Notes: generated from the letters alone by a model not told the origin. A DNA stretch of 48,864 bases, filler included, from Catajapyx aquilonaris (GCA_000934665.2; 2 parts of 2 records of this genome joined end to end with filler, not necessarily neighbours in it); one strand, 5' to 3'; counted from the first letter of the whole stretch, positions 6,838 through 44,075 are shown. Numbers and translations: made by a program.

Positions 6838-6900
<63 letters not shown>

Positions 6901-7437
6901 TATCCGGGTAGTGCTTGGCCTTCCCGGCATGTAGCACGGACCTTTATTTGTACGATGTACATATTTGGAACCTAATTATTGAAGTGCCCGGGCCCACGGG
7001 CAGGATGACAGGAGGGGATGTGCAAGGTGCAGTGCAATGTCTTAAACGTGACAATTTTTAGTGAACTCCCCCGGGTGGTTTAGTCTGTTGGAAATACCAC
7101 CCGAGAAGAAGCCAGAGGTGACCCAATGAACTCTGCACGAGATGAAGGGGGTGTCCCCGGGCTGGGATCGAACCCGGGACCTTAACATCCGTGGGCACAT
7201 ACGTTACCGCAGCACCACTCCGCCTCCCCGTTTACATAAAGAAGTATACAGTACACTACATACATTAAAGTAAGCCCACAGCTTAGGAAAATTAGTCAAA
7301 TACTATACATTATTTTCTTTGCTTCAGAGCTGAGACTCGTTTTTTTGGGCTCTAAATCTCGTGGATTTGCCGACTCGAACGCTTTCGGTTACCCGAGGTT
7401 TCAGTTGATTATTGTTTGGATAATCGAGGCTCCACTG
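6701..7437. mobile_element. pogo/Tigger-like MITE interrupted by a SINE
   Basis: TA-CAGTGGAGCCTTGATTATCC ... GGATAATCGAGGCTCCACTG-TA. Confidence 0.75.
6839..7229 (-). mobile_element. tRNA-derived SINE, copy A
   Basis: Minus strand begins GGGGAGGCGGAGTGGTGCTGCGG (A box), then GGTTCGATCCC (B box); (TTA/TAA)n tail at 6839-6901; 17-bp TSD TTACATAAAGAAGTATA (6822-6838, 7232-7248); related copies at 25004-25379 and 42114-42417. Confidence 0.85.
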
Positions 7438-18019: not shown

Positions 18020-18533
18020 GATCCTTACGTGTACACAACCTCTCTGTCCGGTCCATTCAAGCTGAAGGGTGCCTCGTCGGAGAAGAGCACTTGTTTCCAC
18101 TGTTCCTCAGTCCAGTTGCGGTGCATTTGGCCCACCTCAGGCGACTTCGGCGCATTGCCGCAGTCAGCAACGGCTTCTTTGGCCGGTGTGCTGGAAGCCC
18201 CATGTTGATTGGGCGCTGTCTCACGGTGCTGGTGCCCAGTTTGATGCTGGTTTGGTTGAAAAAGTCTGAAGTGATGTCCCGGGAAGATTTCCTCCTATTT
18301 CCCAAACAGATTCTCTTCAAAATCCTGTCTTCTTTAGATGTTTCCTTCTTTTTCCTTCCACGACCAGGCACCCTCTCCACTGAACCACTTTCTTGGAACC
18401 GTTGCAGCAACCGGCACACAGAACTTTGGTTGCACTCCACCCTAGAAGCAATCTTTTTCCCACTGAAACCTTCTTTGTGCAAGGCAATAATTATTCCCTT
18501 CTTTCTGGGCGAAAATTCCTCCGTTTTCCCCAT
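18020..18533 (-). pseudogene. Tc1-like transposase, N-terminal part
   Basis: MGKTEEFSPRKKGIIIALHKEG...GRGRKKKETSKEDRILKR...KKPLLTAAMRRSRLRWAK, then frameshifted WKQVLFSDEAPF. Confidence 0.85.
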
Positions 18534-20299
18534 GTTGCTGATGGTAGTGGCTGGGGCAACAGGTGCACACCGGCAGACAATGCTATGACTATGACCCACT
18601 ACCACTTTAAAAATTTACCGCGACCGATACCTGCTTAAAATGATCCTCATAATCCAAGGAATAGATGCTATCACTCACTCCGAGTTGGAAATAAGTGGGA
18701 AATTCAACTCCAATTTCATTAGCTCTCACTCTCTAGTTGTCGGAAGGTTTCTAGCTTCCCCAGCTCTATGTTAATCTCTGCATTGCTCCATTGAGGGTTG
18801 GCTGCCACAATCTTTGACCTTGCATCACAGTGTACCTCACAGCGCGCTCAACTTGACTACAAATGTACACCACATCTGCAGGTGGCACAATCACATCACC
18901 TCTATTTTTTTACATAATTATATCAGGCAAGAATGGTAGCAAGTTCCACGAAACAGCTACCCTGCAGTCAGGGCATGTAAGTTTTGGTTCTGAACTAGAA
19001 TCATTTTGGTTGCATGGACCATCTCACCATTGTTATTGCGAGAATCTTTGTTCACTGGATCTCGCTTTCTAGTAGAATTTCTTGCTTGCTCAGTGTGCTC
19101 GAGAGGGGCATCTTCTGGTGACAGAGTCGGGTCGATGACCTCAGGGGATTAATGGAAGTTGCCTTTCTCTGCGTTGTCCATTACAAATTGTTCGGCATGC
19201 TCGTTCTTAACCCTAAACTTGCTACCTGCTATTAGGCATGGTCACTGCCTGACCCCTGGTGGAAAATATGCATTTGGGAGGGCCATTTGTGTACACTGCC
19301 TGACACATTAGCAGTCCCTAAATGTTAACCTGAAGTAGAGATATACGAGTAAATGCTATGGCGTAGGTGCAGATACAACCTTGTAACTCTCACATTGTTA
19401 GAATGGGAAAGAATTAGTCGTATGTGAGACATTTAGTTTATTACACTATAATAATGCTCTGAATAACATGACATACCTCACGTACTACACACAACTATCC
19501 TTTGTGATTGCAGTACTAAAAATAATCTTGCATAATAGTGATATTTCATCGACATTATTTATTTAATGGTAGGTTCAGTCGACTTTAAAGTTATTCTGTG
19601 GAGCAGGTGGAGAAAAGAGTAAAATGTCACACAAGTTAAGAGGTTAACAAGTTCTGGTTTATTTATGTTTTCCGAATGAACCAAATAACCACATACACTT
19701 TAAGCCCTTTGGCCAAACTTTCTCAGGACCGTGTCAAAATATGAAATCGTTCTTGAGCTGGTACTTACAGTATTGATAGCCTGGAGAGAGAGAATGCCAC
19801 CGTCTTGTTGAGTGTTGCTTGGGGAGTGCCCTAGTGGATCTCTGCCGCCTAAGGTTCCCAATACCGTCTCTTTTATACTTAATGTCCACGTGTTAACTAC
19901 GTTGTGACGGTTTCCAATGACGCACACAGATGCCTATGGACGTACATTGGAACACCTGACACCACCGATATCCACTCGATTGGATTCGGTTACTTTTAAT
20001 GTGCTAAAATGCGTCAAGAGTTGTTCTACATCAGATGACGCATTTCGCATTTTACCACGATACGGTTTGAATTGAAGGGCAAGGTCATATACCGTATGAC
20101 GTCCAAGAGCGTGATTAAAAGTTACGTAACATGTTGCAAAATGAACTACGCAATGCTCTGAAAATTGTCGCTACTCTCACTCAAACTCAGCAACACTGCT
20201 GAAATATTTTACTAAGGATCGTGCTTACTCAGCAATGGTGACAGATAATACAAAATCAGAATATGCTTCATGACAATCATGATTATTATTAAATGACGC

Positions 20300-24995: not shown

Positions 24996-25003
<8 letters not shown>

Positions 25004-25046
<43 letters not shown>

Positions 25047-25379
25047 TAATTAATTGGGTATTCGGCTAGCCCCAGAGGGGCCTTCTGCCAGACCTTTATT
25101 TTGATGGAATACAATTTATGGGAATCCTATTTTTGAAGCGCCCGGGCCCACTGGCAGGATGACAGGAGGGGATGTGCAAAGTGCAGTGAATCTGACGCTG
25201 TGGTCATTTTTAGTGAACTCCCCCTGGTGGTTTAGTCTGTAGGATATACCACCCGAGACGAAGCCAGAGGTGACCCTGAACTCTGCACGAGATGAAGGGG
25301 GTGTCCCCGGGCTGGGATCGAACCCGGGACCTTAACATCCGTGGGCGCGCACGTTACCGCGGCGCCACTCCGTCTCCCC
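25004..25379 (-). mobile_element. tRNA-derived SINE, copy B
   Basis: Highly similar to 6839-7229; A and B boxes; (TAA)n tail; TSD AACTACTGTAATAAT (24989-25003, 25381-25395). Confidence 0.85.
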
Positions 25380-25844
25380 AAACTACTGTAATAATTATGT
25401 AGGATAGCTATAATGCTATAAAAGAAACCGATTGAAATTTCTTAGTATTCGTCCTGATGTGATACCGGTATGTCAGAATATGTCTGACTATCTGGTGATC
25501 AGGTACTTCTTCCACCAGGGGTGTACTTGCAGTATTCCAGGCCAGACAGGAGACCACTCCATGGATCAAGGAAGCAGACTCTGTAATCTTGCTCTCCTGA
25601 GTGTAGAAAGAGAAGAAACTGACAAAAACTGACTTTGACCGCATCATAGGCCAAATATTGCATCAGGTTTTTCATGCACTTTTTAAACCCTGGCATATGA
25701 CACAAATGCTAACTCATGGAAGCAACATGATGCCGAATGAATGCTAGTCGGACACCATGTATGCTAGTCAGACACCATGTATTTGTATTAATAACCATGC
25801 GAGTTGCCCCTACACCAGTGCACCACTTTCTATTCGGCCTCATG

Positions 25845-25952
25845 GCAATCGCTTGATTGCACATTATCAATTTCTTTTTCTGCCAGTCTCCACCACATTT
25901 GGAAACAAATACAGGTATAAAAGCTGTTTCTCTCCGAGATTTGATATCACTT
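25845..25952 (+). promoter_or_regulatory. Core promoter of Gly-rich gene 1
   Basis: GCAATCGCTTGATTGC palindrome (25845-25860), TATAAAAG (25916-25923), TCACTT Inr-like motif (25947-25952); same layout upstream of genes 2 and 4. Confidence 0.7.
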
Positions 25953-26005
25953 CCTTCGGCACCTCCAGCAGAAGACATCTCTCACTCCAATCCAACCTAT
26001 ACACC

Positions 26006-26380
26006 ATGGATTCCAAGGTACCGTTCATTCCAACCCAGAAGCCCCTTGTTTATTAACGTGGATATATTCTTGATTGCAACGTGCAGATACTGCTGGTCCT
26101 CGTTGTGCTGGGAGTGGTGGCGTGTGTGTCAGGAGGAGGTCACACCAACTACAAGTACGGGTTTTCCACAAAGGGCAAGTACGGGGCAGCCCAGGTGGAG
26201 GCTGGTGCAGATGACCACAAGTGGGGTTTCTCAGTCAACAACCACCACAAGGATGGGGTCAGCTACATCAAGCAGAGTGGGGACAACACTCACCACGGAG
26301 GATTCGAGGGAGGGTTCGGAGGTGGGGCTGGTGGTGCCGGAGGTGCCGGAGGTGGTTTCGGGCTGGGAGGAGGATTCTGA
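26006..26380 (+). CDS. Secreted glycine-rich protein, copy 1 (101 aa; exons 26006-26017, 26087-26380)
   Basis: ATG GAT TCC AAG|GT...CAG|ATA gives a MDSKILLVLVVLGVVACVSG signal-like N-terminus, then GGHTNYKYGFSTKGKYG...HHGGF and a GGGF-repeat tail; TATA/Inr upstream; AATAAA at 26425-26430; four paralogs in the window. Confidence 0.88.
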
Positions 26381-27007
26381 GGGGTTTAAATGTCATCGTG
26401 TAAATATTTATGTCATGGAATAATAATAAATGCTGATTGCCGTAACATATCGTAGACTGAATGTCCAATGATTTTGACCCATACGTCAGGGTGACCTGTA
26501 TTAGCCCTTTAGAATTGAGAGTCCTACTGCACTTTTTTAGCTTTTCAAAATCGTCCTCAAAGACGATGTTCAATTTTGCCCTGGTACTACTATACTATAC
26601 AGTTGACCTTGCTTGCGTGCGTAAGAATAATCAAATTTGTATAATAAATAATAAAATAATAATTCTTAAAAGCTTATATCTGTAGATCTGGGCAAGAAGT
26701 AAAAACAATCTGAGACCTGCCTGACTTCTGTGCCCCGCGTCACTTACTCTGTATAGTACAACACGCGTCATTGTTATGCGGTAGCTTTTTTCAGATTCTC
26801 AACTGTGATGCTCATGTTAATGCAATCAGTGATTATTGATTAGGTGAAGAAAGAAAAGAGACGGAACATGGCACTTGTGGAATAGGTCTACTCAAAAAAA
26901 TGTTTAAAACGATATGTTCCCATCGCATGTTTTATTATTTGTTGGATTCTACTCATAAGTGCAGCATATTGAAAAAATGACATGTCTTGATTTGCATATA
27001 CACCATA

Positions 27008-27973
27008 CACTCTTAGTCCGGTCACCTTTATTAAAGGTGACAAAACGGCCTGGTTTGTCACCTATATTTTAGAAGGGAATATGTCCCCTTGAAAATAAAA
27101 GGTACCGTTGAACCCTGTAAAGTTTTAGTCCGGTCACCTTTATTAAAGGTGACAAAACGGCCTGTTTTGTCACCTATATTTTAGAAGGGAATATGTCCCC
27201 TTGAAAATAAAAGGTACCGTTGAACCCTGTAAAGTTTTAGTCAGGTCACCTTTATTTACATGGGACAAAATGTCATCTTTTGGCCCCTTTATTTTAGAAG
27301 GGTATATGCATCCTTGGCTTGCCCGGAATCTTGCTCCAATTCAAACCCATCACAGCTGGTCACAACAATGGGGCGTGCAGAAGGTGCAACACAGCAAAGA
27401 GAACACAACGGGAAGCCTGCAAAAAACATACGCTTGGAAGCATGGTCGAAACGACTGACATAGGCCGCTTCACAAATTCGGCGGAAAGCTGAGCGGGCGG
27501 AAAGCGCCGCCATCTTGCCTCCTCCAACCGCCTGCTATCCGCCCGCTCGAGTCCATTCAGAAGGACTCGAGCGGTTCCCACCGCCCGCAGCGTCACCGCC
27601 GAATTTGTGAATTGCCAGCGCTCACATTCCGAGTCCCAAAAGCACGCTTTCCGCCCGCTTTCCGCCCGCTCAGCCATCTGCCGAATTTGTGAAGCGGCCT
27701 TACCTGGACACTGCGGTGGCAATCCCCAGTCTGGCCAGGCCCAGGCCACTGTGTCACCAAGCTGACCTCAAGCGTTGGCAGCCAACTGATCACATCAACA
27801 GCCGCGCAAAAGGTACAGACCAAAGCGAAACCAGTAGTGATGTGACGAAAATAATGTAACGGTCCTCCTGACACCTTTATTCAACGCATCCCTTATAATT
27901 CCCTACTGCCGCATTACGGATCAACTTTAAAACAACACTAAAGGGGATATTATAGGTGACCGGACTAAGAGTG
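27008..27973. mobile_element. Non-autonomous TIR element (TA TSD) with 112-bp internal tandem repeats and a nested MITE
   Basis: TA-CACTCTTAGTCCGGTCACC ... GGTGACCGGACTAAGAGTG-TA; repeat units start at 27013, 27125 and 27237. Confidence 0.8.
27463..27699. mobile_element. Nested Harbinger-like MITE
   Basis: GGCCGCTTCACAAATTCGGC ... GCCGAATTTGTGAAGCGGCC. Confidence 0.7.
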
Positions 27974-28114
27974 TAGGGATACAGACAAAAGCTTTTTATT
28001 CACGGTATACATTGTGTCGATATGTTAATGTAACAAGAGTACGGTACTACATACTGATTATAGTGTAGCCTATAGCATCAAGTGCAATAGAAGAGTAGAA
28101 GAGTCCGAAAGACG

Positions 28115-30303
28115 TCACACGCAGTGCTTGAGGTGACTAATGTGTGACGTATATTTGTCGTCGAGATATTTCAAAAAATTGGTCACTCGTTGCCCCTTCT
28201 TTTCATCACATCTATAATTCTCTCTCTCGTCTTCTAATTTCTTCAGGTAAGGCTGGAAATACATTGTATTAAATAATAATTGTTAGCAGTAGCTACAGGT
28301 TGCACCATAACCACTATGTCAATGTTAAATTAAGTATATGTCAAAAAAGTTATCAACAAATGTATACTTGCGTTACAGTAAAAGCCATATTTAAGACGTG
28401 TCATGCTTGCTTATTGTATCATTTCTTTAGGTCTCCTACACTGCTAACTACCAGTTTTTAAGGGAAAGTTGTGATGCATTGATTTATGGATGGATATACC
28501 TTCAGTTGGTCAGCATGACGTTGAAACATCAACATTCCGCCGACAAAATTCCAGAAGTCGTAGTTTGGCCACAACACCTTGTCAAATGCAATGACGCTGT
28601 ATGCACACTGGAACAAGAAGCTGATTATGCGTAAATTAGCTAATAGCGCAATAATGAGCACCAAGCTTCACTGAAAAATGAACGTGTATATACTGCACGT
28701 TTCAAATTGAACAAGAATTACCTGCCAGAGCATGAAGTTGGAGAGCCTCATTTCTCCAGAGGTTCTGACGATCATGTCAACTGGAGGTAAGTCCGAAGTT
28801 TGAAGACACTGCTCCATCAGTGCCTCTGACACGTCATCTGGTTCGATCAGACCTTTCCTCACTCCTTCCTTCAGCTGGTTTATGGCGTAGGTTATGTCAT
28901 CTCGGCCTAAGAAAGAAAGATTATTATTATTATTATCTATTCCCTGCATAAAGTAGTATTCTGAATTCTGACTAATCCTTAAAAATACTAAGGGAATTTG
29001 GATATTATATGATCGCGTTAATTGCTCACCAGCATAAGGCATGGCCACAGTGAAGACATGCTTATTACAATGACGAGTTCTCTCCATCAGCTCCCCAGCC
29101 AAAACTCGTAGCTTCTGTGGAAATAATTCCAATCGTCCAATAACCCGAAATTGGATTCCATTCTTGATCATGAAATCTCTGTAAAGGTGAACAATACCCC
29201 AAAATTGTACTTGTGCAAACACCCAAAGGGAACACACCAGTTGACCAAAATTTAGTGACACGCACTACTCATCGACCTATGCAGGAAGCCAAATTATTAT
29301 ACCTCTGCGTTGCGCGGTTGCGTAAGTACAGAGTGTCAAATGTTCCCATTTTCGCGCCTTTTTGATACGTTCGCTGTCACTTGGAGGCCCATATCTGGTA
29401 GAAGGTCATGTCAAATATAACATTTGATATGTGCATTGGAAGCGTATTAGTTTTACGCTCTATGAGATGGTCATACTCAAAATTGAAAAATCCAAAAATT
29501 CAAAATCAAAGATGGCGCCCAAATCATTGATGTTGATATTGGTCATGAATCGAACCCTACGATTTCTTTTGAATGGCACTTAAAATGACAAGGGCAATGT
29601 TTACTTCACATTTCCGAAAAATCTGGAGAACCCTTTTTCGATATTTGCCGACAATAATAGCCGACATGCTAAAAAGATAAGTCTCAACAGTAGCCTACAC
29701 CGTGTAGAGTCCGTTTTCAACTCTTCCTACGCCAACGCAACAAGCTTACTCACATCTCTTCCAAATATTGCGTCATGGCATCTTCAAACACCTTAATCAG
29801 TCCTTCAACTTCCTCTTGAGCTCTTCCAAAATTATCCAGGCTGAATGCAAAAGTTGTCACAGCGTAGACACCTAAGAATGCGCACCATCCTACCACTTTT
29901 TTCATTATCACACCACTGGAATTACAGTAGAAATAAGCAACTATGTGTAACGTATTTAGTATAGATTTCCAGTCACATTATTTTCCATGTTGTAACTCAC
30001 CCATCTGTGTGGCCTTGCATGATCGGAAGTCCTTTGGACTTGGCGTATCGTCTGTTTCCATCCATGATGTACCCAACATGACGAGGTACACTTCCTTGCT
30101 TTATTATGTCCAAGACATAGCGCTGCAGCCACGAGGGGTTGTAATACGACTTAGGTCGGTAGTCCTAAAATCATGTGTAGTGTAGGTAAGACATAATTAT
30201 GTACATTACAATACATGATGGAAATGCTTTGGACCATCTGGCACATTAGTTATGAACAATGAGTCGGAAACTATCAGTAAAGTATAAGGTGTCAGCTTAC
30301 CAT
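28115..30303 (-). CDS. DHDDS: cis-prenyltransferase, dehydrodolichyl diphosphate synthase-like (302 aa, 7 coding exons)
   Basis: Exons (minus): 30301-30303 (ATG), 30001-30164, 29754-29915, 29030-29178, 28722-28906, 28500-28607, 28115-28252; all GT-AG and phase-compatible, 909 nt in total. Motifs [76 protein letters not shown]-like run ~30385-30397; AATAAA 28000-27995. May be a paralog rather than the ortholog. Confidence 0.9.
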
Positions 30304-30436
30304 TGTCTGTTATTACTATAGCGGCACTTCTTAACAGTCTGATGAAGGGAATGTGATTCAAGCTGAGACAATCATCCTGACTCTTTATATATATATAGCT
30401 ATATGCCTAGCCTAAAGTGTACAATACACCTGACAA

Positions 30437-30727
30437 AAGGTGCAGGATGAGGGGAAACTTATGCGTCAGCATTATCTAACTTGACTTTATAGAAGAAATA
30501 ATATATTATTGTTTGCAATAGGCGCGAATCGTAGAAAAATATAAACAGGCACAGATTTCCCATGGGAACAAAAGGTGGAGGATGAGTGGAAACCTATGAG
30601 TCAGTATTATCTAACTAATGACCTTGGTAGTGCTCATTAACAGAAAAAATTATTATTTGCAATAGACGCAAATTGAGAGAAAAATATAAACAGGCAGAGA
30701 TTTCCCATGGGAAATCTCTGCCTGTTT
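30437..30727. repeat. Local tandem duplication ending in a 40-bp perfect palindrome
   Basis: AAAAGGTG.AGGATGAG.GGAAAC.TATG.GTCAG.ATTATCTAAC at ~30437 and ~30570; palindrome AAACAGGCAGAGATTTCCCATGGGAAATCTCTGCCTGTTT at 30688-30727. Confidence 0.75.
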
Positions 30728-30826
30728 GCGCATAAGTTTCCACAGCGTCACACCAACTGTTGCTTGTTACAACATCATGTTACGGTGTCATGAAACGTCT
30801 CTGCGATTTGAGGATCCATAACCAGG

Positions 30827-30899
30827 CCATGATGTACCCGACACTTCCTTGCTTTAGTAAGTCCAGGACAAAGCGCTCCAACCACTTGAAGTAATACAT
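30827..30899 (-). pseudogene. Degenerate copy of DHDDS-like exon 2
   Basis: Reads MYYFKWLERFVLDLLKQGSV----GYIM versus [28 protein letters not shown] in the intact gene. Confidence 0.7.
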
Positions 30900-31104
30900 G
30901 GCTGATGAGGACTACCTCTGTGCAGTTGTCTATGTGAGGTTTACAGTGCGATCAAAGGTTTATGTGTAATGGTGACACGCCTGAAACCAACTACTATGAA
31001 TAACATCTGAAAAGAAATTCATCCAACCAGCTTTTTTCATTAAATTTATAACGCCAGGGGTTACTTTATACGAGGAATTTAATGCCGAATGGCTCAAATT
31101 CTGA

Positions 31105-31180
31105 AAATGAGCCTGAAAGTTGCACTTGCACCTTGCACATCTTCCAATCACCCTGTACCTGCGGACCCGGGCATTTCGTC
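31105..31180 (+). mobile_element. Fragment of the same SINE family
   Basis: TTGCACTTGCACCTTGCACATC...CACCCTG...CCCGGGC matches the SINE body at ~42263-42317. Confidence 0.5.
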
Positions 31181-33221
31181 TAGAGAGAAGAAACTTGATG
31201 AGGAAAAATAAAGGTGTGAGACGTATACACTACACCCAATTAGAGGCACGACCTTGCAAATTTAATAATTACAGAAGGCAAGATGGGTAAGATAAGTCTA
31301 TCACGATACTTCTTTATATAATAATGGGATTCCTGGCCTAAAATTAAGGTACTGTACATTGCGTGGGAAAACGCTGGTGCTGAGAGCCCCACGAAAAACG
31401 CGCATGAGGCGGCAACAAAAACAAATTATTGCAAAAATAATTGCAAATATAAGCAGCGCCAGTGATGTGGGTATAAAGAAGGGTATCATTAGCAGTTTTT
31501 CTCGAAATAGAGATACCTAACTTAAGTGCATTTTTTTTGCAGATAAACTGCTAGAGTGCTGATGTTTGTTGGGTACTTTCGTTGTGAAATCAGCACCCTG
31601 ATTTTGCATTCGTACGGGTCTACTAATAACGGATTAATTTATACCAGAACCAAAATTATTGGCTGCATCACAGAATTTGTTGCTGTTAAGCTATGTACAT
31701 GTTATTTTGTACAAATGAAATCCCTCATAGCAGAATCTTTGTGTGCATATTCAAAAATTAACTCATATTTTCGAACAATTAAAACTTGAACACAAATTCA
31801 CCATGCACATTGATTGACTTGCATAGTAGCCTACGTGGTAATCATTTGACAAAATATGCATAAAATTTATACAGTGTAAGGGGGAATTATTGTGGCACAT
31901 GGGCGACGTTGAAATTTTTATGACTGACCGAAGTAATCCAAATATTCCAGCAGAACTACTCTAGCCAATCAGAGACGACTGTGATGTCAGAGGTTGCCTT
32001 TCTCAGTAGCAGGGGTTGCAATAAGAGCTGAGGCTACCGATAATCTCATCAAAATTATAGAAATTCACTCATATGCAAAATCAGTGTTCCACAATTATTC
32101 TGGAGATAAAGTCAGCTAATCGGTTATGTTTTTTGGCTAATTAAATTTTGTATCGCTGTCTTTTTTCGTCTCATGGTCATCCACGATGGACAATGAACTA
32201 CCGGATTCTAATGCGGCTGGTGCGTGTCGTGGGACATCGACTGATCACCCTGCTGCCACCAGAGAGGCAACAATGGTGCATTTATATGAAGAACATTTCC
32301 TGTGTTCGGTGCATTGATTTGGTGTCGTTAGGTATCATAGTTTCACATAATAATGTAACTACTGTGGTATTCACGATAACCACAGCCTCAAACTATTACT
32401 CTCCAGCTTGCACTTTGTTCTCTACACATAGCATACGTGCAGAATAATGTACAGTATAGGTAAGACGTCATGTTACATGAGCACCTTGCACCGTTGCTTT
32501 ATATTCTTCTCCGGCTTTGGAGCTTCCTAATTTCATGGGCAGTCAGGTAAGACCCCTCTCAAACTGTAAACATGTGCCCAATGTATACAGGACTACTCAT
32601 CAATATTGTTAATTAATGGTAATTTACCTTTGCCTCTAATGAAAATGGTTTTGTCGTCGTGTTATCACACTCCCGCGTCATCTGTCAATAATATATTATC
32701 CCTTATAGTCTTATACTACTTCATTCGACTGACTTTAAAATTTCAGCCAGAAGGCCTAAATAGAATTTTGGTGAAACTTCAAAATGCCAATTATAGTAGT
32801 GTAGCTTTGAAGAATAGCTCGTCCATTATTATTTAATGAATACTGTATGTCGTATAGTGCTTTTAGTGGCACGCAGTTGTACAGCATATGTCGCGTCGTC
32901 CCCGGTTTTGCATGGGCCTTTTAAACCCTGGCATATGACACAAATGCTAAGCCATGGAAGTAACATGAGGCCGGATGAATGCTAGTCAGACACCAGTTAT
33001 TTGTATTAATAACTGTGAGTTGCCCCTATGCCAGTGAACCACTTTCTATCAGGCCTCATGGCAATCGCTTGATTGCACAGTATCAATTTCTTTTGCTGCC
33101 AGTCTCCGCCACATTTTGAAACAAATGCAGGTATAAAAGCTGTTTCTCTCCGAGATTTGATATCCCTTCCTTCGGCACCTCCAGCAGAAGACATCTCTCA
33201 CTCCAATCCAACCTATACGCC

Positions 33222-33593
33222 ATGGATTCCAAGGTAGGCCTGTTCATTCCAACCCAGAAGCCCCTTGTTTATTAACTTGGATATATTCTTGATTTCAACG
33301 TGCAGATACTGCTGGTCCTCGTTGTGCTGGGAGTGGTGGCGTGTGTGTCAGGAGGAGGTCACACCAACTACAAGTACGGGTTTTCCACAAAGGGCAAGTA
33401 CGGGGCAGCCCAGGTGGAGGCTGGTGCAGATGACCACAAGTGGGGTTTCTCAGTCAACAACCACCACAAGGATGGGGTCAGCTACATCAAGCAGAGTGGG
33501 GACAACACTCACCACGGAGGATTCGACGGAGGGTTCGGAGGTGGGGCTGGAGGGGCTGGAGGAGTTGGGGGTGGGTTCGGAGGGGGATTTTAA
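33222..33593 (+). CDS. Secreted glycine-rich protein, copy 2 (99 aa; exons 33222-33233, 33306-33593)
   Basis: MDSK|ILLVLVVLGVVACVSG...; GT-AG 72-nt intron; TATAAAAG 33132-33139; AATAAA 33639-33644. Confidence 0.88.
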
Positions 33594-34002
33594 AATAATG
33601 TCCTTTGCGTATCATACAACTTGTGCAAGGTGGTTTTAAATAAATGCATATAAAAGAGTTTCAGCTTTTAAAAAACTAATGCAGTACGGTTCATGGGATA
33701 CAGACAATGCTTACGTCTCCAATCTATAGGAAAGGAAATTCAATAACTGCTATATCATCAATTGTCAAGTCTAGAAGTTGTCATTTTTCTGTCATTCTTT
33801 TTGGACAACGACAGTGCAGTACAACATAATTCATACGACAAAATATGCTGCTTTTAGCAAGTACATGCATGACAATCTCGACCTGAGCATACTTTTCTTA
33901 TGATGTTAAGTCAACGGGAATCTATAGATTGGAACATTTCATCTTTAGCAGATTTGCATTTGACTGAAAAATCGCTGCGGTTTATTGCCAGGAAGATATG
34001 TA

Positions 34003-34894
34003 CAGGGTTGGGAAAAATGTATGATATGATTTGAATCACGTGGTACTGTGGCGTGTGGAGTGGCGTGTGGCGTGTGGCGTGTGGCGTGTGGAGTGGGGAA
34101 GGTTTGCCATTTGCAAAATTTCTGTCGTGGTCGCCAGAGCATTGTGCATTCTTTGTGGAGACTTATTTTAAAATTAACGAGTTCTCCATAGCTCTACGAA
34201 GGATATTTCTTTGCCATTTTGAGAGGGGATATCAGGACAAAGTTATCAACCACAGGACAAACATAAGGTGGGTGAAGTAATTCCTGAACACATCATCATC
34301 CCTGGACCAGAATAGCACTGGTCCAAGGACACTCCGGAGTCCTGGGCTATCGGCCATTCCAAGCGTCAAAAAAAGGTTCTTCGGGCCACTTTGTCCCTTG
34401 CTTTCAATTGTTGCACAGCTTCATCTTGTAAGGATGAAATTGTAGGACATCATGGATGATGCGGCACAGGGAGCGTGCCGACATGAATAGTGCCAAGGAG
34501 TGCCTAACTGCTGATCGCCAAGGACTTCGGAGGAGCGCATTGTGTACAGTACATCTTGGGAGGGTCAGCTATGGCCTTGGATGTCCACTGTTTTTTTGGT
34601 TCCTGATGCTGTATCCCGGAACTGCTTCACTCCCCCTACCATTGGTCAGGGACTTGGTTCTGACATCCCAGCCCAAATGGCGAAGAAAGATTCATTGCAC
34701 AGCTATGGTGCTTGGAGTCATTATTTTTTTAAATCAATCTCCACGATGACTGCATGGTACTTTGCAGACCAAGACATCATTTTTGAAAATGGCACACCTT
34801 CCTCACTCCAGCACACGCCCATGTCCCCTGCATGCTCAAACAGCACCACTGTACCACGTGATTCAAATCATGTCATACATTCTGCCCAACCCTG
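34003..34894. mobile_element. Composite of two convergent 5' fragments of a Tc1/mariner-superfamily element
   Basis: Terminal IRs CAGGGTTGGG...GATTTGAATCACGTGGTAC; plus strand SWSPEHCAFFVETYFK...RWVK; minus strand MMSWSAKYHAVIVE...RSPWRSAVRHSLAL...LQFHPYKM. Confidence 0.75.
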
Positions 34895-35366
34895 CCTGAT
34901 GTGAAAAACATTATTCATTCATGCCTTCCTTCATTATCGTATATGCAACTTTTGCAGATCCTTGAATTAATGTCGATGCCACAGGAAAGTAGAGTAGCCT
35001 TATTAAAAATCAATTGCTTATATCTTTCATATTATCATATTACGAAACTGAAAATCAAAGTTTCAATATATACGATGTAATATATAGATCTGCGCGTACT
35101 ACTCACTTAATTTACAATTTCGCATAATGAATTGTGCCGTGATTTATTGATCATTATTAAAACCAGATAACAGTGCTATTCATTACAAACACAGCCTGAA
35201 ACTGTAAGTTACTTGCCAGCTTGAATGAAGCTTCCTATAGTTCTCCATCCATAGCACATATGCAGAATAATATAGGTAAGACTTGGTAAGACCAAGACGG
35301 CATGTAGGCCTACTCATATTCAATGAGCACCTGAGAGCATGTCAGGAAGCGTGTCCCATCCAAGGC

Positions 35367-35438
35367 GCGATGGTGGTGTAGTGGTCAGCATAGTTGCCTT
35401 CCAAGCAGTTGGTCCGGGTTCGATTCCCGGCCATCGCA
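35367..35438 (+). tRNA. trnG-TCC: tRNA-Gly (anticodon TCC)
   Basis: 72-nt cloverleaf GCGATGG...CCATCGC-A; anticodon loop CTTCCAA; T-loop GTTCGATTC; oligo-T terminator at ~35444-35450. Confidence 0.93.
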
Positions 35439-35687
35439 CTCTCTTTTTTTCAATGTTAAAAAAATATTAAGGCAGGATTGTGACAGATGGTCCAGATGGT
35501 CCGCGGGTGAACCGAAATCACGATTTCATGTTTTTATCAAGAATTACCTCATGGTCCATCCAAGATGGTAGCGTAAACAACTTAATTGGTATAGAAGTAT
35601 CAGAAAATTACTCTACATCACGTAGGCCTACATGTCAATATTTACACGGAAGACCAATAGTCGGATTATATTTTATAAAGAACATTT

Positions 35688-35938
35688 GAGGGGTGTGGTG
35701 GAAAAACAGCATGATAACTGACAACGGTGTAATTTTTCAGGAGAGCGAATTGAAGTTTGCATTTTCTTAACAAATCATAGGGAATGCTGATTTTGATCTA
35801 GTCCGTGTGGCCGTCTCATGCACGATACATGAACTTGGAGTATACCAAACTGTTTGTCATGTCTTATACATAGTTGCTAGGTGTTTAGGTAAAAAATGAC
35901 AAAAATGTCAGTTATCATGTTTTTCCACCACACCCCTC
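35688..35938. mobile_element. MITE with GAG...CTC termini and 4-bp ATTT TSD (Sola-like)
   Basis: GAGGGGTGTGGTGGAAAAAC...GTTTTTCCACCACACCCCTC, flanked by ATTT on both sides. Confidence 0.7.
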
Positions 35939-36031
35939 ATTTTATTTAGACGGCCATGGTATACCATCACTTTTCCTACACTGCAATAATATTCTAAAAC
36001 AGCACACCTTACATTTCTACGATAGTACTTA

Positions 36032-36157
36032 GGGGCGGCTTCACCGAGCTCGGTATATGATAAAACCAGGTTTCTTCAGGAAAATCCATACAAAAATGTA
36101 GGGATTTTCTGAAAGAACCCTGGTTTTATCATATACCGAGCTCGGTGAAACCGGCCC
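36032..36157. mobile_element. Palindromic Harbinger-like MITE
   Basis: TTCACCGAGCTCGGTATATGATAAAACC inverted arms; TTA TSD. Confidence 0.75.
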
Positions 36158-37320
36158 TTAGTCAAGTTAAGCATTGAAGCAATAATTGTGACATATATGA
36201 GCCAAAAGTCCCGTCCAGCAGGAAACCATCATGCACTTGGCCTTTTCTTACTTTTGTTAAAAGACATATTCCACCCACAGCCCTATTACGCAGCACCTCC
36301 TGAAAAACCCCTACGATGACTGAGGGCGATAAGAAACTTGCCTCAGCGCAAAGATGTCATATATATTATACCTTTCCAGTGACTATTTCTGAGACAAATG
36401 CACGGCAATGCGGAGGTTCATAATAATATTATTCTCAGTTACGCAATGGGAGTGGATGGCATTCAAAGGGGAAGGAGGGTGGAAGCTGCCGTTTGAAAGA
36501 AGCCTAATCATAGCTCTAGCTGAGAGTCTAAAACTCTAAAGCAGTGGTTCCTAACCTGGGAGTCGCGAAGCCTTTTCCGGGGGGGTCGCGAGTGGCCGCG
36601 GTAATTTTTATAAATTTAAATGCCTATAAAAGAACTTCAGTTTTTAAATTAGACTTGTACATTACAGTATATACCATTCACGAGGTACAGTACAGTACTT
36701 GCAATAATTGAATATCCACGTTTCCAATCTAGGAAACGCAATTCCTGCTTTATCATAGTCATTTAATAGTGTCACGAATCACGAATGTCAAATCTAGAGG
36801 TTGAGATATTTTCTGTCATTCTTTTTGACAATGACATGCAGTACAGCCTAATTTATGCGACAAAATATGATGCTTTTGACCTGTGCATACTTTTCTTTCG
36901 ACTTTGAGTCAACGGGAATCGAGAAATTGGGCAATATCATCTCTAGCAGATTTGACTTCCAGGAAGATCTAGGCAACTTTCGCAAATCATAATTCCTTTT
37001 CCTGAATATTAATGTAGATGCCACAGGAAAATAGAGCAACCGAATCAAAATCAAGAGCTATCTTTCAAAGGTGTTTTGAAACTGGGAACCAAAGATATAC
37101 GATGTGATTTATTTTGGCGTACGACTCAATACATTAATTAAATTATTAATCATGATTAGAACCACACATGACACATCATGACAAACGCAGCCTGAAACTG
37201 TTACTTGCTAGCTTGCATTTTAGTTCTCCATACAAGCACATGTGCAGAATAATGTATAGGTAAGACGTCTTGTTGCATGAGCACCTGAGAGCAGGTCAGG
37301 AAGCGTTTCCCATTCAAGGC

Positions 37321-37392
37321 GCGATGGTGGTGTAGTGGTCAGCATAGTTGCCTTCCAAGCAGTTGATCCGGGTTCGATTCCCGGCCATCGCA
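37321..37392 (+). tRNA. trnG-TCC: tRNA-Gly (anticodon TCC)
   Basis: Identical to 35367-35438 except one variable-loop base (TGAT versus TGGT); followed by an oligo-T terminator. Confidence 0.94.
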
Positions 37393-38444
37393 CTCTCTTT
37401 TTTTAAATCTTATAAAAATCTTTCGGCAGAATTTAGAGAGAGAAGTCAAACCGTGGATTATGGTAGTTCATGTATACTACGTATTTACGTTTTGAAAGGG
37501 TCTAACAACTAACAAATCTCCCATGCGGAAACATTTGAACAAGACTGATCTAATTCATGGCGATTTACTGGGTTGCAATAATTAAATTTCAGACATTTCA
37601 GTGCGTCCGAGAATTCACAGGACAAATAGGGTTACAGAATTAGGTTCTCTCCTTGACATGACAGACTCTCACGAACTTGACAAGATATCAGCATACGTAT
37701 CTAGTATGTTGCGTTTGTTACAAAGAGTGATCCTGAACCGATCCTGTCACGATTTCAGATTTTTTTATCAGTAACTTCATCATGGTATATCCACAATATA
37801 AGAATAAACCAATACTTAGCATTTAGTGTACCGGAATATCTCGTTCAGGTCAATGCCTACACAAACGAACAGGTACTCGCTTCGGCGGTACACACACGAA
37901 TGAAACGGTAGTCGGATTAAATTTTTGAAGGACATTTCGGACCTATTTCTATGATATGGCTCAGTCTAATTCATATAATTTTAACCAATAATAATAATTT
38001 ATTGTCGACATCGTACGTGTTAACGTCCAGTAGGCCTACTACCATCAGTATAATATTATACTTGGTCAGTTGGTCTCTCAGGACAGATGCTACCCACAGA
38101 ACATTTCCGAATGACACGTCCTCCGGATAACCCACTGCGATGACTGAGGGCGATAAAAAACTCGCCAAAATGCAAAGTTGTCTTGCCTTGCGGATTGTAA
38201 TTTCTGCTGAAGCAATACCTTGTGACATTAGGATAGTTCGTATCGTGCTGCATACCAGTCAAGTGCCAGTGTATACGGCTGCAACCATGTACTACTATAG
38301 GACTTCAATGCACCAATAGTTCTGCAACTCTGAGCAGCAATTTGGCAAGAAAACAGTATAAAAGCTGCTTACTCTACAAGGATCAGTATCAGTCGCTCAA
38401 GCGCACTTCTTCAGGCAAGAGCAACCATCAAGAATCGCATCATC

Positions 38445-38810
38445 ATGGACGCAAAGGTAATTGAAGTAATGCATTGTTTAATCGCACTCACTGCTTCATG
38501 TCAAATGCAGATACTGCTGTTCCTCGTTGTGCTGGGAGTGGTGGCGTGTGTGTCAGGAGGAGGTCACACCAACTACAAGTACGGGTTTTCCACAAAGGGC
38601 AAGTACGGGGCAGCCCAGGTGGAGGCTGGTGCAGATGACCACAAGTGGGGTTTCTCAGTCAACAACCACCACAAGGATGGGGTCAGCTACATCAAGCAGA
38701 GTGGGGACAACACTCAACACGGAGGATTCGGAGGTGGGGCTGGAGGTGGGGCTGGTGGTGGGGCTGGTGGTGCTGGAGGAGTCGGGGGAGGGTTCGGAGG
38801 GGGATTCTAA
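38445..38810 (+). CDS. Secreted glycine-rich protein, copy 3 (103 aa; exons 38445-38456, 38511-38810)
   Basis: MDAK|ILLFLVVLGVVACVSG...; GTAATT...CAG 54-nt intron; TATAAAAG 38357-38364; TCAGTC Inr 38389-38394; AATAAA 38849-38854. Confidence 0.88.
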   Translation: MDAKVIEVMHCLIALTASCQMQILLFLVVLGVVACVSGGGHTNYKYGFSTKGKYGAAQVEAGADDHKWGFSVNNHHKDGVSYIKQSGDNTQHGGFGGGAGGGAGGGAGGAGGVGGGFGGGF

Positions 38811-40067
38811 TAATTGCCCTGTGCAAATTATAACACAGTGTGATTTTTAATAAATGCATACAAATGAATAATTTGACAGTTGTTTAACCTTCTTTCCGTC
38901 AAATGGCTTGGTAATCCTCAAGGTAATATTGATCCCATTATTGTGACTCCAACTCGACGTATTTAATCAGATGAGTCTCACTGATCAACGTTAACTTTGT
39001 AGTTTCCTTTTATTAATACTGAAATGACCACATAAGTGGTGTATTTATGAATTACTCTGTCAGACTTGAAATCAGCGTTACAAGGTTTTCAGTTATGTGT
39101 TGTAATATTGTAACCTGGTTAATATGAAAAACCTACCCCCACCATGGTCATATGCAATATGACTATAAGCATGATGCAATATTTGGGCTTCCGACGATGA
39201 ATTAAATCAAAGCCACTGCCTGTCCTTAACTGTTAATATTCAGCCCTAGCCCAATGCAGTTAATAGCTGTGAAATGTGCATAACCTAATTCATTACAAAC
39301 AGATAGGTAAACAGTCCGTACAACAACCCCCACTGGAGGGGGGGGGGACTGGACAAATGAAACTTTGCAACAGCAGGTTTGTTTCATGGATGAGGCGACT
39401 TTTTTATTTGAATCATCAAGGACAATATGTGTACCGTAAAAATTAGCTATTCACAGGTTTACATAGTACTATTGTATGATAGTGTATGATCATTTAACTA
39501 GTAATAAAACTTACCATATATTTTTATTTTTATTTCTAGAAAAAGTATGTTATATTTCTTTGTTAGCGAGATATATTGACATTTTTTCGAACGTTAATTT
39601 TTAATTGAATTTTTTCGCGATTCACGGATAACCTGCACCCGGATAATCGGGAGTAATGAGTACAGTGTATGTACTGTACATATATGTAAGAAAATATAAT
39701 ACATTTCAGTGTATACATTACATACATGTATGCAAGATAAAAAGCTGCGAATTTTACTCACGTACAAGTGTACCCAATTCAACGTTTTTCTTTGTCAAAA
39801 ATTCCGCAACTGTTTCGCACTTTTCCACACAGAATAAGAGGTGTTGAGATATGAAAGTTGTTACGTATTGCTAGCAATACCTCAATTGATATTAGAAGTT
39901 CTAAGACCCAGTATATTGCATGCAGTACAGTCCTCTAACTCAACAATGGTGCGGAATCTTAAAAAAGGTGTAGAATGGTGTTTCGTTTCCACTGCGAAAT
40001 TACAGCTGGACACAAAGTCTGGAACATGGTTATTGAAGACTCAGGTTAGGTCACTCCCCACCCACCC

Positions 40068-40235
40068 CCTGCCGAAGGATTACGCACCGGGTGGCCACTT
40101 GAGATCGCTACGAGACATTTCCCAAGGCTATCATGTAAAGTTCCGCCTTAGTCCGGTAGGGTCGCCACATGATAGCCTTGGGAAATGTCTCGTAGCGATC
40201 TCAAGTGGCCACCCGGTGCGTAATCCCTCGGCAGG
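40068..40235. mobile_element. Palindromic MITE-like element
   Basis: ~70-bp near-perfect inverted arms CCTGCCGA.GGATTACGCACCGGGTGGCC...CTATCATGT around a ~30-nt spacer. Confidence 0.7.
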
Positions 40236-40468
40236 TGATAACGCCAGAACGCAGTATAAGTGTCCGTGGGCTGGTCTGGAACATCTATGTTGAATAGAAC
40301 TCTTTCGGGTCGGAAAAGGCTATCTTTGGGTATTTACTGCTATCAAATTGGCCATCTGGGGCATTTGGAGGTTTCGTATTAGTATTGGCCTTGACGAATA
40401 GAGCTCGTTTAATGCATAATCTCAAAAAAAATCTCTTTGGCACTTACCCCCTTTATCATGTCTACTCC

Positions 40469-40538
40469 TCATTTTTATTCGCAACAGTGAGGTGCGTCTA
40501 CCGCGGTAGACGCACCTCACTGTTGCGAATAAAAATGA
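40469..40538. repeat. 70-bp perfect loopless palindrome
   Basis: TCATTTTTATTCGCAACAGTGAGGTGCGTCTACCG|CGGTAGACGCACCTCACTGTTGCGAATAAAAATGA. Confidence 0.9.
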
Positions 40539-40738
40539 CGCGGTGCAGCACATTCCATCAGGCCTCGTCATGGCAATCGCTTGATTGCACATTCTCAATT
40601 TTTTTACTAGTCTCCGCCAACATTTTGTAACTAATACACGTATAAAAGCTGTTTCTCACAGACATTTAATATCACTTCCTTCAGCACCTCCAGCAGAAGT
40701 CATCGCTCGAGGGTTCAAGCCAATCCAATCTATACGCC

Positions 40739-41146
40739 ATGGATTCTAAGGCAATTGTCTGATTAAGTTCACTTCAACACAAGAAGGTAACTTTGTTCTC
40801 AATATTGACAACGAATTATCTTAATTGCAACGTGCAGATACTGCTGGTCCTCGTTGTGCTGGGAGTGGTGGCGTGTGTGTCAGGAGGAGGTCACATCAAC
40901 TACAAGTACGGGTTTTCCACAAAGGGCAAGTATGGGGCAGCCCAGGTGGAGGCTGGTGCAGATGACCACAAGTGGGGTTTCTCAATCAACAACCACCACA
41001 AGGATGGGGTCAGCTACATCAAGCAGAGTGGGGACAACACGCACCACGGAGGATTCGGAGGTGGAGTGGGTGGGGGTGCTGGTGGGGCTGGAGGAGCTGG
41101 AGGAGTGGGAGGGGGGCTTGGAGGGGGATTTGGAGGGGGATTTTAA
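40739..41146 (+). CDS. Secreted glycine-rich protein, copy 4 (106 aa; exons 40739-40750, 40838-41146; GC-AG intron)
   Basis: ATG GAT TCT AAG|GCAATT...CAG|ATA; TATAAAAG 40641-40648; TCACTT 40672-40677; AATAAA 41175-41180. Requires a non-canonical GC donor. Confidence 0.75.
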
Positions 41147-41777
41147 ATGTCCTTTGTACTACAAAGTGGTTTTCAATAAATGCATATAAAAGAATTTCAG
41201 TTTTTAAATTACAAGCACTTGTGCAGTGCCGTTCATGAGGTACGGACTATAGGCCTACTTGAATATCACGTTTCCAATCTGCGTAAATGCAAATCATAGT
41301 AGGCCATTATCAAAACCAGGCTACTTATTTCAAAACAAAATTTTCAGGAAACGAGAATTTCTGAATTAGCGCTTTTTTGGTTGCCCTAATGAAAGCTAAA
41401 ATGTGCATTATACGCTTTGTCTTGTCGCCTATCACATATCCGGAGCACGGAATTCATAATCCAAAAACAAAATCACAATGATCGATTGAAAATTAAGGCA
41501 GCCTGGTTTTGAAACGGCCAAGAAGGATTTTCTATGCTCCAAAAGGTGATAATGCAGCTCAGTACTAAAAACCATGCAAAACACGAATTTTAATAGAATC
41601 AGTAACGCATAATGACAGTCATTATGAGTAATTATTAAAATCCGTCATTTTTCATGCAAAGTCATCTTTATTATGTTGGTTTATTTCCAGAGTTAGATAG
41701 TTCACCCACACGCCAAAAAAAGTGGAGTGGTGGGATAATAAACAAAATGTGATAGAAAATCTCCATGAATAATATTA

Positions 41778-42653
41778 TCTACTAGCGGGATACCCGGCGT
41801 TGCCCGGGTATGTTGGGGTGCTGGTAAAGATAGGGGTACATATCTGTGATAGATTACCTGCTTGTCTTATAGCGTACAGTCGACACGGATATTCTGATTG
41901 GATGTGTAAAAGGAGGAATGCGGATGGAGTTGGCCCAGGAAAAGACTGCACAGCCATGTGTTTTTCCCCCTGCATTTTTGACCCCTTGACCCCTTGACCC
42001 CTCAACCCCACCTCACACCCCCACCTCGTTCCATATGTTTGCTCTGAAGAACTTTAGAAATGTACGTACAGATGTATGATGGGAAATTTTGTTTTCAACA
42101 CGGAGTAATATAAAGTGGTGCTGCGGGAACGTCGGGTTCGATCCCAGCCCGGGGTTCCCTCCTTCATCCCGTGCAGAGTTGGGTCGTTTCTGGCTTCGTT
42201 TCGGGTGGAATCTCCTCAGACTAATCCACCCGGGGGAGTTCACAAAATATACCGTTTGAGAATTGCACTTGCACCTTGCACATCCCCTCCCAGTCACCCT
42301 GCCCGTGGGCCCGGGCGCTACGTCAAAAAGGTTCCATCAAGACAAAATAAAGGTTCCCTCCCTGCGGTACGATGCATCGACTGCATCGTACCGCAGGGAG
42401 GTAAATAGCTAAAAAAAGATAGGCATTTCCATGGGAAGGCAAATTGATTTGTTGTTATTGATGTAAGCTAATTGTTGAGGCAGGAATATGCGTGTTGTGG
42501 GAGTTAGGTACATTTTCGGAAGCTGAAACATGCGGCGTTAGATTCCTTGGAAAAGTAACCCCCGAGATGCTAATTTAAGGCGGTGTAGGGGCCTTCCCCT
42601 GGATTTCTATAAGGGACAAACATCCAAACTTCCTTATTTATAGATATAGAGAT
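41778..42653 (+). mobile_element. Helitron-like non-autonomous element carrying a nested SINE
   Basis: Starts TCTACTAGCGGGATACCCGGCGTTGCCCGGGT (similar start at ~12371) and ends ACAAACATCCAAACTT...TTTATAGATATAGAGAT; pattern-based call only. Confidence 0.4.
42114..42417 (+). mobile_element. tRNA-derived SINE, copy C (deletion between A and B boxes, different 3' tail)
   Basis: AGTGGTGCTGCGG...GGGTTCGATCCCAGCCCGGGG...CCTTCATC.CGTGCAGAG; tail with hairpin at 42357-42401. Confidence 0.75.
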
Positions 42654-43083
42654 ACTTTAGAATGGATAATATCATATAAGTCGTTACAACGGAGTTTGAA
42701 GGACACCAAAGTTGAAGTTGATTTGACATTAACAACTGAAATCAAGGTGCATGGCAGTGCACCCCGCCAAGTCATCACTCCATATTACTTCACACCACAC
42801 ACACAGTCTACATTTCGACACATCGCCTACTGCCACTTGTCATGTAACCAGGCAACCAAATAAACATGCACTGCTGTGGGCCTTTTTACTATACCCCCTT
42901 CGTATACTACATTTGACCTCCTTCCAGCTCAGCTCGGGAAAACGTGGAGATCTTAGCTTTACAAAATAGAATGGCAAGGGCCCAGGGACCCTACAAAAAA
43001 AATATTCATGATTTTGTGACAAAAGGTTCTAGAGATATAACACCTCAAAAAATGCCATTTTTCTTCCAATAATATATATATAT

Positions 43084-44075
43084 CCCCTCAAAAACGCACT
43101 CGTAAAAAACCCGCCAAGTATTCAGCCGAAAAAACCTGTGAGATAGTGTCTGGGAGCCAAGCCTTGTCCACTCCGCCGTACAAAGTCGTGAGATCGTGGT
43201 GGACGCCAAGCCTTTCTTCGAGGCTATAAGCTAAGTGAGATGACTTGGCCGGACTTGGTTCACGGGCACGAGGAACAATACGCGTTCAGTTCGCTGGAAT
43301 TTGGTCAAGTTACTGTTCTCCCAATAAGCTGTACGACTTTCAAGTCTAATTAACCCCGATTGTAATCATGTGCCGTTCGAAGGTGACATTTTGTAGTTCC
43401 TGTGATACGAATCAGAGGTCCAAGTATATTTATAATTAGGCCCTAATGAATAAAGGAACTATATACGTGCTTTTAAGGTGGAGGTGTTACGTTACTGCTC
43501 CACCATCGAATGTCACATTTTTGGGTAATGGCTTGTCGCGAGCAGGTTTGGACTGCCCGCCTCTGCCCCCCTCCCGTGTTGATGTTGGCTCTCTTGGACC
43601 TGAGTTGGCGCCCCTGTCAGGCGGTGCTGGAGGGGAGCAGGGGGCGGGTAGGGTCAGTAGAGGAAAAGCGACCAGACCAGGAGGACGCTAGGGAGCGGCT
43701 CTCCTGCCCCCAGTGCCGTTTGTGGTATGTACTTAGGTGCATCTCGATAATAAACATGTTGCACAGAAGCGGTGGTGTCGTTATTGGGTTGCAACTTGGA
43801 TGTAACCTCTGACCCAGGGTCACAGGCTCTACCAATGAGTGTAAAAGTTTACTTTCTATTGTATTAAACCACGCATCGCATTGTTCCTCGTGCCCGTGAA
43901 CCAAGTTCGGCCAAGTCATCTCACTTAGCTTATAGCCTCGAAGAAAGGCTTGGCGTCCACCACGATCTCACGACTTTGTACTGCGGAGTGGACAAGGCTT
44001 GGCTCCCAGGCACTATCTCACAGGTTTTTTCGGCGGAAGACTTGGCGCGTTTTTTACGAGTGCGTTTTTGAGGGG
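43084..44075. mobile_element. Non-autonomous TIR element with ~195-bp TIRs, CCC termini and 2-bp AT flanks (CMC/EnSpm-like)
   Basis: CCCCTCAAAAACGCACTCGTAAAAAAC...CACGGGCACGAGGAACAAT is inverted at 43881-44075; a partial related TIR lies at ~47522-47642. Confidence 0.75.

Follow-up and report, generated by a model that had tools for sequence, protein, structure and literature searches.

Two glycine tRNA genes within a glycine-rich peptide-gene array of Catajapyx aquilonaris: an ordinary tRNA gene probably carried along by duplication

Why should two genes for a glycine tRNA lie in the middle of an array of glycine-rich protein genes? We address this question for a locus of the arthropod Catajapyx aquilonaris (GCA_000934665.2), in a stretch of 48,864 nucleotides in which two parts of this genome are joined end to end with filler. 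This whole stretch is called the window below, and all positions are counted from its first letter. The array consists of four copies (G1-G4) of a two-exon Gly/His-rich peptide gene, all on the + strand, and two tRNA-Gly(TCC) genes lie within it (Table 1). The first-pass annotation proposed gene and tRNA as a repeating unit, through which the locus might co-amplify or co-activate the very tRNA that its product consumes. Our analysis favours a plainer answer: an ordinary tRNA gene was probably carried along, incidentally, in a tandem duplication. As a structure the locus is real and goes beyond chance, and a functional reading of it is possible, though its anatomy does not support one.

Run over the window, ARAGORN reports exactly two tRNA genes, both of them tRNA-Gly(tcc) with the anticodon tcc at position 34. 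Rfam agrees, as the two score 66.5 and 66.4 bits against the full RF00005 model, which has a gathering score of 29. The earlier description of two intact genes, at 35367 and 37321, is therefore borne out. So is their placement between the second and third peptide genes on the same strand, exon 2 of G2 ending at 33593 and the ATG of G3 standing at 38445; the end of tRNA gene 2 is 964 nt upstream of the G3 TATA box. Both copies carry an exact B box, GGTTCGATTCC, and an A box that was judged by eye only, and the trailer of each is TCTC followed by a run of seven T. The one difference in their 73 positions is at position 46, within the variable loop, where 35412 has G and 37366 has A. By these features both look like ordinary, working eukaryotic cytosolic genes of RNA polymerase III (Pol III), type 2.

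Two other explanations of the tRNAs could be rejected. They are not the heads of short interspersed nuclear elements (SINEs), since each is closed directly by a T7 terminator of its own, and the blocks on either side consist of collinear single-copy spacer. Nor does tRNA processing make the 3′ end of the peptide mRNA, as the gene's own AATAAA lies 1.7 kb upstream.

What, then, was duplicated? The two tRNA-bearing spacers, X (33634-36358) and Y (36608-38182), have five blocks in common, A, B (with the tRNA), C1, C2 and U, in the same order and orientation. Block A starts inside the 3′ untranslated region (UTR) of the gene, just 5′ of the poly(A) signal, and matches in two pieces (33634-33672 and 33754-33956 against 36608-36648 and 36778-36954), while block U pairs 36263-36358 with 38082-38182. 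The three pairs of duplicated blocks noted previously, A/A′, B/B′ and U/U′, were all found again and are real. Between the spacers, the Kimura two-parameter (K2P) distance is 0.27 both in A and in the 5′ part of B, 0.26 in C2 and 0.29 in U. It comes to 0.25 in the 48 nt that follow the tRNA and to 0.43 in the short block C1. Five collinear blocks with such even distances argue for one old tandem or segmental event that copied the whole spacer. Spacer X is the longer of the two because a foldback element and two hairpin elements were inserted into it, and the interval that the foldback occupies in X (34003-34894) measures just 54 nt in Y. These matches point to a duplicated unit that was the entire intergenic spacer, now about 27% diverged.

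The tRNAs have not taken part in this drift. Their one difference in 73 positions compares with 175 differences in 774 positions (22.6%) of the pooled spacer, and the probability that drift would leave at most one is 1.7e-7. This contrast means that both copies were kept as tRNAs, independently of their surroundings, and the sequence indicates that purifying selection or conversion kept them.

The proposed repeat of gene plus tRNA does not hold up. A tRNA stands directly behind only one of the four peptide genes, G2. No gene precedes spacer Y: a comparison at E <= 0.01 and word size 7 found nothing similar to the gene in the 249 bases that separate U from A′ (36359-36607), and either a gene was deleted there or the duplication started at the 3′UTR. 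Behind G4 a further copy of block A, A″, is followed by neither a B block nor a tRNA, and behind G1 and G3 the sequence comparison found no remnant of the spacer. A third copy of the tRNA-upstream block, the relic B″, lies upstream of G2. Its homology ends about 33 nt short of the expected tRNA start and no tRNA follows, which leaves one of the three tRNA-type spacer blocks without its tRNA. An Rfam scan of 25000-43500 at E <= 5 returned only the two tRNAs, with no remnant behind G1, G3, G4 or B″. Furthermore, the youngest duplication, that of G1 and G2 (25666-26361 against 32904-33580, 91.4% identity over 699 columns; 2 of 90 positions differ in the 5′UTR and 3 of 69 in the intron), comprises the promoter and the gene only. 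From these observations it follows that the linkage has not been kept.

There has been no amplification beyond one or two events either, given only two tRNA genes for four peptide genes. The amplified copy number of tRNA genes (tDNAs) that marks a supply cluster of the kinds discussed below, the SYY cluster and the silk glands, is not found here, with two tRNA genes in 48.9 kb. Co-amplification is partly borne out: a tRNA-Gly(UCC) gene was indeed copied inside the array, in one old tandem duplication, but it was the spacer that was duplicated, not gene plus tRNA, and there are two tRNA copies only.

Table 1. Coordinates of the array, its spacers and the neighbouring features, in positions of the window
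Feature	Position	Strand	Details or basis
Tc1/mariner-type transposase helix-turn-helix (HTH) and Mutator-like element (MULE) transposase domain remnants, upstream of the array	18060-18614, 11597-11884	both -	domain matches
G1, Gly-rich peptide gene copy 1	25916..26430	+	TATAAAAG 25916, ATG 26006, intron 69 nt, exon 2 26087-26380, AATAAA 26425
cis-prenyltransferase (DHDDS-like) gene, unrelated, between G1 and G2	28480..30900, exon limits approximate	-	PF01255, E 1.4e-25, frame 28668-29264
Relic B″ of the tRNA-upstream block	32361..32486	+	80% to 37176-37286
G2, Gly-rich peptide gene copy 2	33132..33644	+	TATAAAAG 33132, ATG 33222, exon 2 33306-33593, AATAAA 33639
Block A, spacer X (3′UTR end and 3′ flank of G2)	33634..33956	+	77.5% to 36615-36970, 306 aligned columns
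Foldback insertion, like a miniature inverted-repeat transposable element (MITE), with long inverted ends, spacer X only	34003..34894	.	34003-34243 matches 34894-34652 inverted
Block B, spacer X, with tRNA 1	34966..35487	+	70.7% to 37008-37441 over 522 columns
tRNA-Gly(TCC) gene 1	35367..35439	+	ARAGORN, Rfam
Blocks C1, C2, U, spacer X	35508..36358	+	broken by X-specific hairpin insertions 35687-35939, 36040-36160
X/Y junction	36359..36607	.	gene copy expected; no similarity to gene
Block A′, spacer Y	36608..36954	+	copy of gene 3′UTR end, poly(A) signal decayed, TATAAAAG at 36625 kept
Block B′, spacer Y, with tRNA 2	37008..37441	+	sequence comparison with block B
tRNA-Gly(TCC) gene 2	37321..37393	+	ARAGORN, Rfam
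Blocks C1′, C2′, U′, spacer Y	37734..38182	+	sequence comparison with spacer X
G3, Gly-rich peptide gene copy 3	38357..38854	+	TATAAAAG 38357, ATG 38445, exon 2 38511-38810, AATAAA 38849
G4, Gly-rich peptide gene copy 4	40641..41180	+	TATAAAAG 40641, ATG 40739, exon 2 40838-41146, AATAAA 41175
Block A″ behind G4	41177..41295	+	no B block, no tRNA after A″

The peptide genes have evolved in a different manner from the spacers. The first 207 nt of exon 2 (26087-26293, 33306-33512, 38511-38717 and 40838-41044) are 97-100% identical in all six pairs of copies, and G1, G2 and G3 show no synonymous difference there. In G3 and G4, on the other hand, the introns are only 54-68% like those of the other copies, and the range for their introns, UTRs and flanks is 42-69%; the promoter, 5′UTR and intron of G3 cannot be aligned with those of the other copies. 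The Gly tails, with 75-86% identity and with insertions and deletions, are the variable part of the gene. This pattern is what exon-limited gene conversion would leave, and we read it as such. Such conversion implies that the genes and the spacers have separate histories.

Could conversion also be all that keeps the tRNAs? They might be silent copies without a role at the locus, their sequence maintained only by conversion from other tRNA-Gly(TCC) genes. Many predicted tRNA genes in animal genomes are inactive, and the exon-limited conversion in the array makes tracts of this size plausible. However, the A box, B box and T7 terminator are intact in both copies, mild conservation is seen over the 53 nt upstream, and the single difference between the copies argues against a very recent mutual conversion. 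We hold this to be the least probable of the readings considered here.

The history that we favour would have begun with a functional cytosolic tRNA-Gly(UCC) gene that happened to sit in a spacer of an array of small, secreted Gly/His-rich peptide genes. Growth of the array, through unequal crossing-over or tandem duplication, would have copied the spacer and its tRNA at least once and probably twice. The purifying selection usual for tRNA genes, or conversion among them, would since have preserved two of the copies intact, and the third would have been deleted. Meanwhile exon 2 of the peptide genes would have been homogenised by gene conversion, and the remaining spacer would have drifted to about 27% divergence and gained mobile-element insertions. 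The match between the anticodon and the favourite codon would then be a coincidence, perhaps with a small side benefit. As Pol III transcripts both tRNAs would presumably feed the general pool, with no dedicated coupling to the genes around them.

Events of this kind are well known. Tandem and segmental duplication is a common route by which the nuclear tRNA gene families of eukaryotes grow, and in plants tandem tDNA duplication has reportedly been surveyed. The locus resembles such duplications in that collinear blocks of even divergence carry the tRNA, which has stayed nearly identical while its flanks have drifted. It is unlike the usual case in that the copied DNA is spacer from an array of protein genes, and their product is rich in the amino acid of the tRNA.

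Several observations weigh against an incidental passenger. The tRNA is the exact isoacceptor for the commonest codon of the genes. The earlier count for G1 proved exact (29 Gly among 101 codons: 12 GGA, 7 GGG, 9 GGT and 1 GGC), and across G1-G4 the 123 Gly codons among 409 are made up of 52 GGA, 37 GGG, 30 GGT and 4 GGC. The tRNA accordingly reads the codon that the genes use most, both among Gly codons and overall. In the Gly tails GGA accounts for 40 of the 79 Gly codons and GGC for none. The use of GGA also stands out against the non-Gly four-fold codon families of the same genes, where the third position is A in 21 of 115 codons; these families are the only comparison for the Gly bias, the window holding little other coding sequence. 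Furthermore, the tRNA-bearing block has belonged to the array at three or more places, so the association is old, and both remaining copies have come through about 0.27 substitutions per site. Immediately 5′ of the tRNAs, a stretch of 53 nt with 7 differences is somewhat better kept than the spacer, although not significantly (P = 0.067). That said, the bias towards GGA and the avoidance of GGC may have simple alternative causes: within Gly runs GGC always stands before a G and creates a CpG, and runs of GGG would build long G tracts.

The same observations invite the view that the linkage was selected. Strong tissue- or challenge-specific activity of RNA polymerase II (Pol II) would open the chromatin of the array and switch on the embedded Pol III genes, and so raise the GGA-reading tRNA for a secreted product that is 30% Gly. 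Active tRNA genes do tend to be near active Pol II genes, reportedly the subject of works by Oler and by Moqtaderi, both of 2010. The fit of the anticodon to the most used codon, the intactness of both tRNAs after about 27% spacer divergence and the presence of the block at three or more places all speak for it. Yet 71 of the 123 Gly codons (37 GGG and 34 GGT or GGC) need or can use other isoacceptors, and the avoidance of GGC is what CpG avoidance in Gly runs would predict. Two tRNA genes may also be a small share of the tRNA-Gly(UCC) pool of a cell. The anatomy is equally unhelpful, with the linkage lost at the B″ relic and absent behind three of the four genes, no gene in front of spacer Y, and a newest gene duplication (G1/G2) that left the tRNA out. 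We consider such a selected supply unlikely.

It does have a precedent. According to passages of one report, the SYY cluster of Arabidopsis, a tandem array of tRNA-Ser and tRNA-Tyr genes, shows activity in the cells of the root cap, and when the cluster is deleted a Ser/Tyr/Pro-rich extensin reporter is impaired (PMC12308677). As described there, it shares with our locus the idea of tandem tDNAs that are switched on in particular cells and aid the translation of an amino-acid-biased secreted protein. It differs in being a large array of tDNAs only, not interleaved with its clients, for which expression and a deletion phenotype have been measured. At the locus studied here two tDNAs are interleaved with the candidate clients, and they are known from sequence alone. 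Among public sequencing runs, the stretch was listed for four runs of a single study, marked 'DNA?', and for one run of unknown kind with 0.02 of the words, but for none recorded as RNA.

A second comparison is with silk glands. In those of Bombyx mori and of spiders, the pools of Gly, Ala and Ser tRNAs match the dominant, biased secretory product. This adaptation is achieved by differential expression of dispersed tRNA genes and by a gland-specific tRNA-Ala variant, and is not known to involve physical linkage to the fibroin gene. The likeness to our locus is that of a tRNA pool fitted to a biased secretory product.

A bolder version would extend to the lineage. In this group of arthropods tRNA-Gly(UCC) genes might be kept recurrently in arrays of Gly-rich secreted-peptide genes, where the embedded Pol III genes would be switched on together with a strongly induced Pol II array, so that the tRNA for the dominant codon would rise locally and automatically. 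Client genes and tRNA would then form one physically linked module in the nuclear genome of an animal. We regard this as improbable.

The position of the tRNAs might also point to a role that has nothing to do with glycine. tDNAs act as barriers and insulators in yeast (the HMR tDNA) and in human, and tDNAs bound by TFIIIC and Pol III could here separate the tandem promoters or shield the array from silencing that spreads out of the many mobile elements nearby. Both tRNAs are intergenic and on the same strand as the genes, with tRNA 2 lying upstream of the G3 TATA box at the distance given above, and mobile elements abound in the window (a Tc1-type HTH, a MULE domain, hairpin insertions). The use of tRNA genes as barrier elements for transgenes is reported (PMC11830863). 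The likeness ends at tRNA genes between Pol II units, as the anticodon plays no role in such barriers and its match to the peptide genes would be left unexplained. Only two spacers carry a tRNA, moreover, and one tRNA was lost while the neighbouring gene was not. A barrier role is in our view very unlikely.

Is such a linkage known elsewhere? A literature search, with most subscription journals outside its scope, turned up no case of physical linkage between tRNA-Gly genes and genes for Gly-rich proteins. If the linkage were selected after all, it would be the first case known to us, in an animal nuclear genome, of a cognate tRNA gene physically coupled to the genes that consume its product. 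It would also offer a simple system for asking whether local chromatin couples the output of Pol II and Pol III. As it is, the locus displays within 16 kb a tRNA carried along in tandem duplication, purifying selection set against a flank drift of about 27%, and exon-limited conversion in an orphan family whose Gly tail changes fast.

The peptide family, Gly/His-rich, orphan and secreted by prediction, may merit attention itself. Its products have 99-106 residues, with a hydrophobic, signal-like start followed by about 50 conserved residues that include His, Tyr, Trp and Lys. The C-terminal end is a Gly tail of GGF, GGGA and GGGF units, GGGF occurring twice in the tail of G2. Pfam has no family for the peptide at E <= 1. 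A word-indexed protein search gave one match among 1,595 candidates, and an exhaustive phmmer search of 1.84 billion representatives gave two, P0001 (88%) and P0003 (59%), neither of them named; the exon 2 translation of the query family is P0002. A scan of metagenome contigs matched 595 stretches by pattern, of which none was confirmed. The nearest clusters in the ESM Atlas are arthropod low-complexity or cuticle-like proteins, at 0.77-0.81, which is below the level considered meaningful. In the databases searched, the peptide family thus appears as an orphan with two unnamed relatives only. The ENA record for each of P0001 and P0003 is a single contig of 558 bases, possibly shared by the two. 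Between them they account for the peptide's back and front halves, as would be seen if a single related gene were read in two frames.

What might the peptide do? Its composition alone makes it a candidate immune (antimicrobial) or cuticle-associated product. Armadillidins and other Gly-rich antimicrobial peptides of arthropods are similar in having a small precursor with a signal peptide, repeated GGGF-type motifs and His residues. That said, no sequence relationship between them and the peptide came out of the exhaustive database search, which gave only P0001 and P0003 and included no direct alignment to an armadillidin sequence. The Gly-rich part of the peptide, unlike that of armadillidins, is a C-terminal tail behind a conserved 50-residue part with His, Tyr and Trp. 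Passages of one report restrict armadillidins to terrestrial isopods (PMC7017220).

The four peptide genes share a common layout. In each, TATAAAAG lies about 90 nt 5′ of the ATG, exon 1 has four codons, the intron measures 54-87 nt and AATAAA follows 40-45 nt past the stop codon. The genes of the window carry TATA boxes, GT-AG introns and AATAAA signals, which mark it as eukaryotic. The intron donor of G4 (40751-40752) is GC and not GT, which would make this either a GC-AG intron or a weakened copy of the gene. An unrelated cis-prenyltransferase gene separates G1 from G2.

Some minor features of the spacers may be added. Each A block carries at its head (33649, 36625 and 41185) a TATAAAAG element, 4 nt past the poly(A) signal and in a context like that of the promoters of the genes (AAATGCA..TATAAAAG..GTTTC). 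The window as a whole has eight such elements on the + strand and one on the - strand. The one at 36625 has been retained despite the decayed poly(A) signal and the lack of a preceding gene. The A-block element could mark a Pol II start, vestigial or live, that faces the tRNA gene lying about 0.7 kb further downstream.

Several MITE-like insertions, foldback or palindromic in form, are spread in and around the array, at 34003-34894, 35687-35939, 36040-36160, 40040-40240, 40460-40530 and 27462-27700. One of these insertions has a sub-threshold match to a MIR447-like hairpin, which scores 44 bits where the gathering score is 200. The window also contains three copies (6848-7229, 24997-25379 and 42133-42336) of a repeat some 380 nt long with a B-box-like GGTTCGATCCC, possibly a tRNA-derived SINE, and two of these copies bracket the array in opposite orientation.

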